From the sequence record SRR31156797_10130: 54,939 nucleotides of DNA; one strand, 5' to 3'. Under the pieces are notes generated by a model, which ran no database searches, was not told the DNA's origin, and saw only the letters and a list, made by a program, of their open reading frames with translations. Every line of letters begins with the position of its first letter. Position 1 is the stretch's first letter. Both the position numbers and the translations under genes were made by a program. Shown in pieces: positions 1,981 to 4,926 of this stretch.

Positions 1981-2245
1981 AAAAAACCTCATCCCTTTGC
2001 TTATCAATTTTGACAAACAAAGGGACGAGATTTTCGTGTTACCACCCTTTTTCGCACCATCCTCACAAATGGCACCTCAACAGTACGCTAAGATACTTGG
2101 CACGATAACGGCTGCTTTCCGTCTGATTTGCGTGAACAAATCAGATCACTCAGAGCTCATCTTCACTTTTTTTCTGCTGCCCTTTCTCACCATCCGGGTT
2201 CTCTTCTAACAGATTCCAAAGCTACTCTTCTCTTCATCGTCTTTC
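1981..2245 (-). ncRNA. T-box riboswitch, Met (AUG) specifier
   Basis: Minus strand: GAGTAG, AGAGA and GGTGAG stem-I motifs; GAAG-ATG-A specifier (2160-2158); T-box AAGGGTGGTAACACG (2049-2035); terminator CTCGTCCCTTTG/CAAAGGGATGAG plus T-tract. Confidence 0.93.
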
Positions 2246-2302
2246 TTTTTATCTAAAAAACAGGTAAATGACGTTTTTTGGTCTATTTCATGATTGTTAT
2301 AA

Positions 2303-2331
2303 AGTATACTATTGGTGTTTTTGGAAGTCAA
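2303..2331 (-). promoter_or_regulatory. SigA promoter of T-box/oppA
   Basis: TTGACT-17 bp-TATACT on the minus strand. Confidence 0.75.
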
Positions 2332-2392
2332 CAAGAATTGCGAATATTCAGTTTTTTATGATTTTTCTGGCAGACCTTTTTTTGCATCTTGC

Positions 2393-2421
2393 TTGCCTTT
2401 CATCACGTTCTTCTCTAGGAT
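2393..2421 (+). promoter_or_regulatory. Putative SigA promoter of DIP1984 gene
   Basis: TTGCCT(2393-2398)-17 bp-TAGGAT(2416-2421). Confidence 0.5.
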
Positions 2422-2467
2422 AAGAACTAGATAAGCTGTTCTCATTTGTAAAAAGGAGTGTGCCAAA

Positions 2468-2920
2468 ATGAAATTAGCAGAAGCGTTACTTTTAAGACGG
2501 GATTTGAACAATCGTCTGTTTCAATTACGTAACGAGATCTCTAGCAGTGTGTTAGTCCAAGAAGGCGATACCTTGGATCGTAGTATCACAGAATTGTTCA
2601 AGGAATACGATGAGATCAATCAACAATATTCAGAATTAGTCGTTGCCATCAATCGGAAAAATGCGACTGCCTCTTTAGCAGATAGTGCGTTATTGCTGAT
2701 GGAAGCACTAGAACAGCGAGAACAGCTGCGCCGCAAGCATGCACTGCTAACGCAAGCACTGGATGAAACCAAAGCAGCTCCCCGAATAGGTCGCAACGAA
2801 ATTCGACTGGTGCGTACGATCGATACAAAAACGCTAACGGAGCAATTGAATGCGACCGCCAAGCAGCTGCGAGAATTAGATGGAAAGATCCAACAAACCA
2901 ACTGGCTAGTCGATCTTTAA
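2468..2920 (+). CDS. DIP1984-family all-helical coiled-coil protein, function unknown
   Basis: Characteristic N-terminus MKLAEALLLR, VQEG motif, C-terminus LDGKIQQTNW; RBS AAAGGAG. Confidence 0.88.
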   Translation: MKLAEALLLRRDLNNRLFQLRNEISSSVLVQEGDTLDRSITELFKEYDEINQQYSELVVAINRKNATASLADSALLLMEALEQREQLRRKHALLTQALDETKAAPRIGRNEIRLVRTIDTKTLTEQLNATAKQLRELDGKIQQTNWLVDL

Positions 2921-2927
2921 TCAATAT

Positions 2928-3085
2928 GGGTGGGTGTCAAAGGCGAGCACAAAGCAGGTACAGGCTGATATGTACACTATGGAACGTCTGGCAGAGACGT
3001 AAACGTAACAACCACTGCTTACGAATCACAATCGTAACAATCACATTGTATTTTTTAGCGACCACGTGCTGATTTGACTGGATGG
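2928..3085 (+). ncRNA. Putative novel structured RNA in the 3' region of the DIP1984 gene
   Basis: Six mutually compatible helices including an end-to-end closing stem, two 12-nt repeats, and a downstream terminator (see findings). Confidence 0.65.
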
Positions 3086-3088
3086 GAA

Positions 3089-3123
3089 AAACCCTCTTCT
3101 TTTTTGAGAAGAGGGTTGTTTTT
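3089..3123 (+). terminator. Bidirectional intrinsic terminator
   Basis: AACCCTCTTCT/AGAAGAGGGTT hairpin with an A-tract before and a T-rich tract after, between convergent genes. Confidence 0.85.
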
Positions 3124-3155
3124 ATCGTATCCAGTCGTACATGGAGGCGGCTCTT

Positions 3156-3872
3156 TTACTGCGAAGCCTGCTGCTTGTTACTCACAGCGGAAGGACGCGC
3201 CAGAAACGCTTGCCCTTTCTCACTGCTCCAAAACTCCTTCATCAATGCCGTCAATCCCTCTTTGGTTTGATTGGCACCAAAGAAAGGACTGCCGGGTTCC
3301 AACATGATGCCATTAGCTAAAGCACCGATAGGAAAGGGATCAAAGCCGAAAGCGTCAACGATTTCGTCTGTCTGATCGAGGGCGGTTTGGTCATCACCAG
3401 CAATGGCGATGGCTTTTTTGGCAGTTCCTTGAGCAGCCGTTCTCGTCAGCAAGGATTCCTCTTGGATGTCGTGGTACCCCATATGATTGAATCCTTTGAC
3501 TACTTTACTTTGGGAAAAATAGCGTTGCACACGTTCCGAAGAAGTCTGCTCGATGGATGAGTATTCTGTTTCTTTGCCATCGACTTCCCACCAATAATTC
3601 ATGGCATCGATCACTAGCTTACCAGCCAAAGCTTCTGCCGGCAGCTGTTGGTACTTACTCAACGGAATGGCCAAAATGATCGTTTGAGCTTCCGCCATCA
3701 CTTCAGCGGCATTTTTTGCGATTGCTCCCGGAGCCAACACAGAAACGGACAAGGCGATTTTTTCTGCTGGCTTCGTACTAGCAATCAAGACCCGATAGCC
3801 CGCCTGGGCACCAAGATTTGCGAGCGCTAAGCCTAACTTGCCTGCGCCTAAAATACCGATGGTTTTAGGCAT
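3156..3872 (-). CDS. NADPH-dependent F420-reductase-like dinucleotide-binding oxidoreductase
   Basis: GILGAGKLG Rossmann motif, IDAMNY and VVKGFN motifs; overlaps the LLM gene stop; start could be 3872, 3878 or 3881. Confidence 0.85.
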   Translation of the reverse strand: MPKTIGILGAGKLGLALANLGAQAGYRVLIASTKPAEKIALSVSVLAPGAIAKNAAEVMAEAQTIILAIPLSKYQQLPAEALAGKLVIDAMNYWWEVDGKETEYSSIEQTSSERVQRYFSQSKVVKGFNHMGYHDIQEESLLTRTAAQGTAKKAIAIAGDDQTALDQTDEIVDAFGFDPFPIGALANGIMLEPGSPFFGANQTKEGLTALMKEFWSSEKGQAFLARPSAVSNKQQASQ

Positions 3873-4926
3873 TGCCATCACCTGCTGCCAACAATTCTTT
3901 CACTCGTGGAATCACTTTGGTTCCATACAATTCAATCGTTTTGAAACGGTCTTTTTGCAGCTGGCCGCCAGTACCGTAAACCAGATCAAAGCGTTCTACA
4001 CCGACTTGCGGCATCATACGGGCGATTTTTTGCGCCACGGTTTCTGGACTGCCAACATAATAAGACCCATGTTCGACTTCAAAGTCAAAGCGCTCTTTGC
4101 TCATAGCTGGCCAGCCGCGATCAAGACCGATTTTGTCCATGCTCTTTTTGATGTAATTCCAGCCGATTTCATAGGCTTCTTCGTCGGTATCGGCGATCAC
4201 ACCATGAGAGTGCATGCCGATTGGTAAAATCGGTTGCCCCAGTTGCTGCGCTGCCTTTTTATATAGGTCAACATAGGGCGCAAAACGAGCGGGTTCGCCA
4301 CCGATGATCGCTAACATAACAGGAAACCCATAACGGACGGCACGAATGATCGATTCAGGGGTTCCACCGACACCCACATAGGTATCTAGTTGATGCCCCT
4401 CAATTTTTGGAAAAACGTCGGCATGTTTTAAGGATTGCGTAAACTTGCCTTCCCAAGTTAATGGTTTGCCTTTTCTCAATTCACTGAACATTGCTGTTTT
4501 TTCTTCAAATAGTTCTTCATAATCTTGCAAGTCGTAGCCGAATAGAGGGAATGATTCAGTAAAAGATCCTCGTCCCAGCATGATTTGTGCGCGACCGTTC
4601 GACAACGCATCAACGGTCGCGAACCGTTCGTAGACCCGCACAGGATCATCCGAACTCAAGACAGTTACACCGGTACCTAATTTGATGGTTTTGGTAACCA
4701 TTGCTAAAGCCGCTAGTACCGTATCAGGACTTGAGATCGAATATTCTTCCCGATGGTGCTCCCCTAAGGCAATGACATCGATGCCGACTTCATCGGCTAA
4801 TTTTCCTTCTGCTACGATATTGCGCAACGATTCGCTGTAACTGATTCGTTCTTTCGTTGTATCATCAAAGGCTAGATCGCCAAAAGTATCTAACCCAAAT
4901 TCAAGATTTCTGTGATTGATGGTCAT
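3865..4926 (-). CDS. LLM-class (luciferase-like) flavin-dependent oxidoreductase
   Basis: GEHHR, LSSDDPVRVYERFATVD and GRGSFTESF motifs; RBS GAGG before ATG 4926. Confidence 0.92.
   Translation of the reverse strand: MTINHRNLEFGLDTFGDLAFDDTTKERISYSESLRNIVAEGKLADEVGIDVIALGEHHREEYSISSPDTVLAALAMVTKTIKLGTGVTVLSSDDPVRVYERFATVDALSNGRAQIMLGRGSFTESFPLFGYDLQDYEELFEEKTAMFSELRKGKPLTWEGKFTQSLKHADVFPKIEGHQLDTYVGVGGTPESIIRAVRYGFPVMLAIIGGEPARFAPYVDLYKKAAQQLGQPILPIGMHSHGVIADTDEEAYEIGWNYIKKSMDKIGLDRGWPAMSKERFDFEVEHGSYYVGSPETVAQKIARMMPQVGVERFDLVYGTGGQLQKDRFKTIELYGTKVIPRVKELLAAGDGNA

Follow-up and report, generated by a model that had tools for sequence, protein, structure and literature searches.

A conserved RNA element downstream of DIP1984-family genes: a candidate protein–RNA pair of bacteria and plasmids

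The stretch of DNA analysed here, referred to as the window, comprises 54,939 nucleotides (nt) of sequence record SRR31156797_10130 and encodes a 150-amino-acid (aa) protein of the DIP1984 family at positions 2468–2920 of the + strand (stop codon 2918–2920). An initial annotation of the window, based on folding by hand, had proposed that the region between this gene and the following terminator specifies a multi-helix RNA which acts as a partner of the protein. Judged by sequence comparison, the folded + strand RNA behind the DIP1984 gene is real and conserved: compensatory changes maintain its structure, and its linkage to the gene is strict across phyla and replicons. As the folded RNA lies behind the DIP1984 gene in distant bacteria and on plasmids, RNA and gene probably work together as a hitherto undescribed pair.

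All six hand-drawn helices (designated here as H1 to H6) were found at their annotated positions in the window, and the RNAfold minimum-energy fold of the window RNA reproduces them. Covariation was assessed in a MAFFT alignment of 14 relatives (A4), which was not fitted to any structure. H1 (2936–2941/3073–3078) and H2 (2946–2950/3066–3070) were shown to be paired in 100% of the alignment cells, with three of six and four of five pairs, respectively, changed on both sides; the changes in H1 convert G-C to A-U or G-U and keep the pairing. H4 (2958–2962/2971–2975) was paired in 97% of cells, with one of five pairs changed on both sides (G-C to A-U, in one sequence), and H5 (2984–2989/2995–3000) in 88%, with five of six pairs changed on both sides. 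These four helices are accordingly those for which compensatory changes bear out the initial drawing. The drawn structure as a whole pairs in 84.6% of cells, compared with 29–41% when the 3′ partners are slid by one to three columns.

The remaining two helices fared less well. H6 (3028–3032/3045–3049) was paired in 42–46% of cells and was split by alignment gaps into two short pieces, and its conservation was not supported. H3 (2952–2957/3015–3020), although present in the window, was poorly kept in A4 (73.8% of cells paired, one of six pairs changed on both sides), its 5′ strand being altered in 5 of 14 rows and the partner CUGCU unchanged in 12 of 14. A predicted pseudoknot between the H5 loop GGCAG (2990–2994) and CUGCU (3015–3019), with which H3 competes in the window for the same partner (3015–3019), was paired in 95.7% of cells, one of its pairs showing compensatory change among close relatives, and fits the alignment better than H3. 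With the pseudoknot in place of H3 and with H6 dropped, 96% of cells pair and 14 pairs change on both sides; this covariation was reached by 0 of 500 shuffles, and slid controls pair in 28–44% of cells. Furthermore, U-G was observed in 9 of the 14 sequences at one position of H5, and G-U is the commonest pair at one pseudoknot position, both of which fit the + strand only and place the RNA on that strand. The features of the RNA, with helices H1, H2, H4 and H5 given as P1, P2, P4 and P5, are as follows.

2927–2934, + strand: 5′ G-rich box UGGGUGGG, single-stranded, invariant in 11 close relatives and outside the 144-nt contig described below
2936–2941, + strand: 5′ strand of P1, pairing with 3073–3078
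2942–2945, + strand: conserved internal loop GGCG, opposite GA (3071–3072)
2946–2950, + strand: 5′ strand of P2, pairing with 3066–3070
2952–2957, + strand: 5′ strand of helix 3, poorly conserved, rival of the P5 loop for 3015–3019
2958–2975, + strand: P4 hairpin, 2958–2962 pairing with 2971–2975
2984–3000, + strand: P5 hairpin, 2984–2989 pairing with 2995–3000, loop GGCAG (2990–2994)
3015–3019, + strand: CUGCU, predicted pseudoknot partner of the P5 loop, from covariation
3026–3038, + strand: conserved single-stranded motif of the uACAnnnGUA type, overlapped by the unsupported helix 6
3060–3065, + strand: GACCAC, directly before the 3′ strand of P2
3066–3078, + strand: 3′ strand of P2 (3066–3070), GA (3071–3072) and 3′ strand of P1 (3073–3078)
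3080–3086, + strand: 3′ G-rich box GGAUGGG, short counterpart of the tail GAGGGYGGGnnnGGGG of relatives

Several of the unpaired positions are strongly constrained. ACC (3061–3063) is invariant in 25 of the 25 sequences of alignment A5, and the following A nearly so. In an Enterococcus lineage (loci L007–L009 and L017) and, separately, in the distant Bacillota locus L060, a change of G2942 to A is coupled to a change of A3072 to G, which suggests a non-Watson–Crick G·A pair next to P1. A candidate pairing between the 5′ tail and the ACCA block takes the form UGGU-ACCA in most relatives and GUGG-CCAC in the window; both sides are nearly invariant, and one compensatory case, AGGU with ACCU (L071–L072), was seen by eye. 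Interpretation of the GGCG/GA loop as a K-turn or box C/D motif was rejected after inspection by hand, as the register does not fit and G·A becomes A·G in relatives. A small protein encoded within the RNA was likewise rejected, as neither of the open reading frames (ORFs) at 2926–3072 (+ strand) and 2937–3065 (− strand) is kept in frame or matches a family.

Within the Enterococcaceae, the RNA region was matched in eight of eight genomes of the nearest genus, as well as in four further genera, always behind a DIP1984 gene. Its nucleotide identity to the window equalled or exceeded that of the ORF in nine of nine comparisons (e.g. 83% versus 59%, and 74% versus 64%), and no reading frame inside the RNA region was kept in relatives. 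A covariance model of the window-type RNA (R1) and a profile of the gene were run over the same 134 Enterococcaceae genomes, of which 15 were found to carry the gene and 12 a strong R1 match (110–181 bits), in each case directly 3′ of the gene. None of the remaining Enterococcaceae genomes yielded a strong R1 match, the single weak extra match (26.8 bits) being located inside a long ORF. Two loci that possess the gene and lack an R1 match (L032 and L033) carry, as judged by eye, a different-looking RNA of the same build. Near-identical gene-plus-RNA modules were observed in two further Enterococcaceae genera (L009 and L017) and on an Enterococcus faecium plasmid (L057:2957–3118), and a record named ‘Enterococcus phage Efs 1-1-1’ encodes a protein with 60% identity to the window DIP1984 protein, suggesting recent horizontal spread of the whole unit. 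The gene and the RNA travel together into differing gene neighbourhoods and onto plasmids.

In broader genome sets, the DIP1984 gene was identified in 12 of 301 Lactobacillales and 22 of 401 Bacillota genomes, and at every locus inspected by eye (10/10 Lactobacillales and 20/20 Bacillota) an element of 170–240 nt was present behind it. The parts recognised by eye comprise, on the 5′ side, a GGUAGC tail, a long P1, the GGCG loop, P2, a hairpin and a second hairpin with a GGGC-type loop; in the middle, often a hairpin resembling the T arm of transfer RNA (tRNA; GGUUCRAnnCC), a GCCC block and an ACAnnnGUA motif; and, on the 3′ side, CUACCAnGURCUGA, the return strands of P2 and P1 and the tail GAGGGYGGGnnnGGGG. 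Of 32 non-redundant elements, 31 were shown by an alignment-free duplex search to have the P1/P2 helix beside the ACC block; only L080, which is devoid of the tail, did not. The GGGC loop and the GCCC block exhibit compensatory variants (GGACA/UGUCC, GGGCG/CGCCC, UUGGGC/GCCCAA and GGGGC/GCCUU), and their pairing in relatives is the counterpart of GGCAG:CUGCU in the window.

Compared with these elements, the window RNA keeps P1, P2, the GGCG/GA loop, ACCA before the 3′ strand of P2 and the pseudoknot, and is, as are its close relatives, without the tRNA-like T-arm hairpin between P5 and the pseudoknot partner. It also lacks the GGUAGC and GAGGGYGGGnnnGGGG tails and has UGGGUGGG at the 5′ and GGAUGGG at the 3′ side instead. 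The window RNA is, by these sequence features, a reduced Lactobacillales variant of a wider DIP1984-linked family, in which the RNA subtype follows the protein subtype.

The tails and the gene copies themselves show some variation. In six loci (L059, L060, L064, L089, L092 and L128), P2 is directly followed by CCCACC or CCCGCC, to which the G-rich tail (GGGUGGG or GGGCGGG) is complementary, the U/C of the tail covarying by eye with the A/G of its counterpart; the window has no such arrangement, which resembles a second pseudoknot. P1 is flanked by around four G-tracts, distributed as two plus two in the window type and one plus three in most relatives, with none in proteobacterial copies; these tracts may bind protein, pair elsewhere or form a G-quadruplex. 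Two genomes (represented by L062/L081 and L063/L080) each encode two DIP1984 proteins from genes located ~2 kb apart, and the RNA behind the second copy (L080 and L081) keeps P1, P2 and the ACCA block, with AAAGGAGGUGA at the place of the G-rich tail. The DIP1984 homologues of L075 and L076 possess a C-terminal extension, and a same-strand downstream ORF begins a few bases past the G-rich tail at these loci, as opposed to the usual terminator.

The DIP1984 gene was furthermore found on 366 plasmid records, 341 of which are from Acinetobacter, and in four phage records. R1 gives a low score (13.9 bits) for the region downstream of the gene on Acinetobacter baumannii plasmid NZ_CP084722.1; P1 of this RNA is changed at every base yet retains pairing, P2 is represented by AGUAC/GUACU, the ACCA block is present and the GGCG/GA loop is the same as in the window. 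An RNA of the window type (178.9 bits with R1) is encoded on E. faecium plasmid NZ_CP034945.1. Just after the RNA on an A. baumannii plasmid (L058:2752–2779), a 28-nt stretch resembles a XerC/XerD (pdif) site, and the DIP1984 gene and RNA of that plasmid may be mobilised jointly as a pdif module.

A scan for the core pattern of the RNA across 185,579 genomes, one per species, matched at least 120 stretches, of which the 80 listed were examined. A DIP1984 ORF was shown to end 18–104 nt upstream, on the same strand, in 18 of the 80 listed stretches; five to eight of the eight bases flanking the core pair in these copies (at least six in 16 of 18), and a strict G-tail is present in 10 of 18. Among the other 62 listed stretches, one to six of the eight bases pair (five or fewer in 59 of 62) and none has the G-tail; on account of this low pairing and missing tail, they are regarded as chance matches in GC-rich DNA. 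The 18 gene-linked copies span Bacillota, Actinomycetota, Pseudomonadota, Chloroflexota and Vulcanimicrobiota, with sources including Ottowia, Comamonadaceae and Acinetobacter (Pseudomonadota), Anaerolineae (Chloroflexota) and Baltobacteraceae (Vulcanimicrobiota); except for Baltobacteraceae and Desemzia, the phylum given for these genera is the one to which we presume them to belong. The proteobacterial copies are without the 5′ and 3′ tails. No convincing copy of the RNA away from a DIP1984 gene was identified in the 134 Enterococcaceae genomes or among the 80 listed stretches of the species-genome scan. Conservation downstream of DIP1984 homologues, which the initial annotation had anticipated, was thus observed for nearly every Bacillota gene examined, for 18 genes of five phyla and on two plasmids.

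Comparison with catalogued RNAs gave no counterpart. Rfam 15 in E-value mode returned nothing meaningful at E≤10 in the RNA region of the window or of a wider-type example, and at the gathering score no match was obtained at the element in 20 related loci or in the window, consistent with the initial annotation, which had recognised no tRNA, riboswitch or SRP fold. No tRNA or transfer-messenger RNA (tmRNA) gene was predicted by ARAGORN in window positions 2200–3300 or in six related loci, and no array was detected in 2200–3300 by Tandem Repeats Finder. The blank ARAGORN and Rfam results likewise point to neither a tRNA nor a riboswitch; a riboswitch or 5′ leader was also rejected from the layout, as the RNA is followed by a terminator and then by a convergent gene on the other strand. 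The RNA is described in no paper found by full-text searches on family names; supplementary motif lists, which lie beyond the scope of such searches, could hold a DIP1984-linked RNA under another name. A structured RNA of this size without an Rfam match would represent a new class of bacterial non-coding RNA.

The protein was assigned to the DIP1984 family, as initially annotated, by two profiles matched over its full length and above their curated cut-offs: NCBIfam NF038048 (DIP1984_fam; E=1.2e-42, 145.6 bits versus a cut-off of 70) and Pfam PF20935 (DUF6847; E=4.7e-38, 130.8 bits versus a cut-off of 27). Beyond DUF6847, no significant Pfam match was obtained for the window protein, a match to NIT falling below its cut-off. 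The family comprises 1124 cluster representatives at E≤0.001 in a library of 1.84 billion proteins. An AlphaFold2 model of the window protein (based on 57 relatives) predicts an all-helical four-helix bundle with a predicted local distance difference test (pLDDT) score of 95.4. Using this model, Foldseek retrieved Protein Data Bank (PDB) entry 3kdq of Corynebacterium diphtheriae, a crystal structure released in 2009, with a template modelling (TM) score of 0.91–0.93, and no other chain at E≤0.001; the same entry was matched at the sequence level (E=2.4e-15). Neither the model nor the Foldseek search revealed a nuclease-like or other toxin-like fold for the window protein. Against the PADLOC defence library, the window protein matched only LmuB, far from significantly (E=0.55), its matches in the PHROGs phage library were weak and none was significant, and a look-alike search in the protein Atlas gave no usable score.

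An Acinetobacter plasmid protein that bears the name ‘septicolysin’ in CP007578.1 is entered in RefSeq as ‘DIP1984 family protein’. Thiol-activated cytolysins contain a large, β-rich cytolysin domain. The cytolysin label was rejected for the window protein, which is 150 aa long and all-helical and in which Pfam detected no cytolysin domain; the name does not suit a helical bundle of this length and, judging from the data, the ‘septicolysin’ virulence label has no foundation. The Acinetobacter protein has been called a putative virulence factor (PMC5559437) and the DIP1984 protein was entered as hypothetical on an OXA-24/40 plasmid (PMC10889530), with the RNA unmentioned in the portions of these two papers that treat the protein. 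A dedicated RNA would provide the first concrete lead on the DIP1984 family, whose function has no established account and whose members are carried on hundreds of Acinetobacter plasmids, labelled there as a cytolysin. The window contributes the reduced Lactobacillales variant, the plasmid-borne copies and a hint of expression.

The gene and the RNA are located in a compact unit, of which the features are listed here together with the transcript-derived contig.

2393–2421, + strand: candidate promoter TTGCCT-17-TAGGAT, a weak match (8/12) picked by eye and putative
2454–2458, + strand: ribosome-binding site AGGAG, 9 nt before the ATG
2468–2920, + strand: DIP1984/DUF6847 gene, encoding a predicted four-helix bundle, from profiles and model
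2935–3078, + strand: 144-nt contig from RNA run X1, a metatranscriptome, consisting of one base plus the P1-closed core
3090–3123, strand not assigned: intrinsic terminator, a 12-bp stem (3090–3117) followed by a T run and preceded by an A run

Between the stop codon and the terminator lie 169 nt without a conserved ORF, and no terminator was seen between the DIP1984 stop codon and the RNA. Co-transcription, as initially proposed, is in keeping with this arrangement, in which gene and RNA share a strand and a terminator follows the RNA; that the DIP1984 gene and its 3′ RNA form one transcription unit, co-transcribed and tightly linked, is well supported. The unit had also been described as self-contained, a description which holds for the ribosome-binding site, gene, RNA and terminator, the promoter being the weakest part: a promoter scan of the window found none on the + strand upstream of the gene, TTGCCT-17-TAGGAT scoring below threshold. 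A similar pair, TTGCCA-17-TAAGAT, is located upstream of the DIP1984 gene of relative L017. The next gene (3156–3881) is on the opposite strand and encodes a homologue of F420_oxidored-type NADP oxidoreductases; given the A run that precedes the stem, the terminator can also serve this convergent gene.

Eighteen RNA-labelled runs contain the stretch, all as assembled contigs, and four of these (X1, X2, X3 and X5) were compared with the window. In X1, the 144-nt contig has a depth of 1618, the contig covering the gene (1800–2964) a 24-fold lower depth of 66.6, and the contig on the far side a depth of 161. The letters adjoining both ends of the 144-nt contig are taken to be Illumina adapter sequences, in which case many library inserts would be exactly the 2935–3078 fragment. 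The adapter orientation would place the 144-nt RNA on the + strand if the library was stranded by the deoxyuridine triphosphate (dUTP) method. X2, X3 and X5 contain the whole stretch within one long contig and speak neither way. A processed species of ~150 nt, postulated in the initial annotation, is thus matched by the X1 contig, at contig level and in a single run, which hints that a stable, nuclease-resistant core of ~144 nt accumulates above the coding part.

Based on these data, P1 and P2 close the RNA around the fixed GGCG/GA loop, with the P4 and P5 hairpins inside, the P5 loop paired with the downstream CUGCU and the single-stranded ACAnnnGUA and ACCA blocks in the junction. The RNA would then be cut or trimmed from the 3′ end of the mRNA, and the four-helix-bundle protein would bind it, probably at the GGCG/GA loop, the ACCA junction and the G-rich tails, resulting in a small RNA–protein particle assembled from a single transcript. 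We consider it fairly likely that the RNA is released from the mRNA 3′ end and bound by the protein of the same transcript to form such a particle. The broader proposition, to which we give an even chance, is that DIP1984 and its RNA represent a widespread, unrecognised class of small ribonucleoproteins of at least five phyla, spread by plasmids and possibly phages, of which the Enterococcus form is stripped down, with the T arm lost and the G-tracts split between both ends.

A number of observations weigh against a partnership of this kind. The folding energy of the window RNA is ordinary (z=+0.25; 111 of 200 shuffles fold at least as well) and the opposite strand folds about equally well, again no better than shuffles, so that the single sequence alone is no evidence for the fold. 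At L034, no recognisable RNA was seen by eye behind the DIP1984 gene, and another gene starts ~180 nt downstream. The paralogues L080 and L081 are without the G-rich tail. The PDB title of the sole structural relative, 3kdq, indicates no function. At an isoelectric point (pI) of 5.94, the protein is slightly acidic (family median 5.93; 42 of 57 members below 6.5), and the conserved positions of the family include seven well-conserved basic and ten acidic residues. These values are not those of a typical basic RNA-binding protein; any binding of the RNA by DIP1984 would involve a local surface, or the protein would act on the RNA in some other way. The expression hint is derived from one run, and contigs prove neither the ends nor the levels of an RNA; moreover, the 144-nt fragment is without both G-rich boxes, which may be trimmed off or may form no part of the stable RNA.

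Among the alternative explanations, we regard as rather unlikely a purely cis-acting role, in which the RNA would be a 3′ untranslated region (UTR) element of the DIP1984 mRNA that blocks exonucleases or provides a feedback site for decay or translation, with no stable particle. The RNA does start a few bases past the stop codon and always lies between the stop and terminator of the same gene, and a nuclease-resistant core would also explain the 144-nt contig. However, the fold, with its pseudoknot, invariant loops and, by eye in some relatives, T-arm-like hairpin, is elaborate for a stabiliser; the RNA is kept across phyla, at least as well as the ORF, and the X1 fragment exhibits 24 times the depth of the coding part. 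Enterobacterial small RNAs derived from 3′ UTRs, such as CpxQ, originate from the mRNA 3′ end, share its terminator and are processed into stable species; they are short, weakly structured, Hfq-dependent and confined to narrow clades. The DIP1984 RNA resembles them in its position at the mRNA 3′ end with the terminator and in the hint of a stable species, whereas it is ~150–230 nt long, pseudoknotted and kept with one gene family across five phyla.

A somewhat less probable alternative, which would be compatible with binding, is a conflict module (addiction, phage defence or counter-defence) in which the RNA neutralises or licenses the protein. The patchy distribution of the gene (15/134, 12/301 and 22/401 genomes), its presence on 366 plasmid records and in four phage records and the near-identical modules shared by three Enterococcaceae genera and an E. 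faecium plasmid would fit such a module, while PADLOC gave no significant match, PHROGs weak matches only, and neither tandem RNA repeats nor a nuclease- or toxin-like fold were detected. In the type III toxin–antitoxin system ToxIN, the endoribonuclease toxin ToxN is encoded downstream of ToxI, an array of 36-nt tandem repeats; units of this type are often located on plasmids and phages. The DIP1984 unit resembles them in combining a structured RNA and a protein gene in a single transcription unit; in contrast, the DIP1984 RNA is single-copy, repeat-free and downstream, and the protein is a four-helix bundle without a nuclease match. The toxin–antitoxin or defence role suggested in the initial annotation therefore found no backing in the absence of tandem repeats and of a nuclease-like fold and in the LmuB match at E=0.55.

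It is improbable that the RNA is independent of the protein, i.e. a trans-acting small RNA or tRNA-like decoy that merely shares the promoter. Such independence would account for the T-arm-like hairpin (GGUUCRAnnCC) of some relatives and for an X1 fragment far more abundant than the coding part, but not for the lack of a convincing copy away from a DIP1984 gene or for the RNA subtype tracking the protein subtype; in addition, the window variant has no T arm and ARAGORN finds no tRNA-like gene. That drawing by hand produced the helices by chance, in what is no more than a common spacer ahead of a terminator, as a folding energy no better than shuffles and the unconserved helix 6 might suggest, is hardly credible, this explanation already being refuted by the comparative data, i.e. 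conservation, compensatory changes and strict linkage across phyla.

With regard to the favoured protein–RNA particle, known systems offer partial parallels. Ro60 with Y RNA or YrlA, and tmRNA with SmpB, combine a structured RNA of 100–350 nt with a dedicated small protein encoded nearby. The DIP1984-linked relatives are similar in possessing tRNA-like elements and pseudoknots; conversely, no similarity to these RNAs exists at the sequence or Rfam level, the proteins fold differently, the window variant is without the T arm and the DIP1984 RNA is the 3′ end of its partner’s own mRNA. TnpB and IscB are RuvC/HNH nucleases of ~400 aa or more found in transposons, and their omega RNA ends in a variable guide; HEARO is an Rfam entry. 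Like omega RNA and HEARO, the DIP1984 RNA is structured and is encoded at or past the 3′ end of its protein gene. Unlike the TnpB/IscB case, DIP1984 is a 150-aa helical bundle, no guide-like variable end was seen and the RNA has no Rfam match.

Upstream of the DIP1984 gene, a patch at 2274–2349 is conserved in relatives. The only promoter-like site found by the scan, TTGACT-17-TATACT at 2303–2331 (− strand), faces the gene for an oligopeptide-binding protein (253–2016), which has a leader of ~290 nt with a faint, partial T-box match at 2200–2246 (15 bits, E=0.94). A tRNA gene at 78–159 represents the only Rfam gathering-score match in the whole window.

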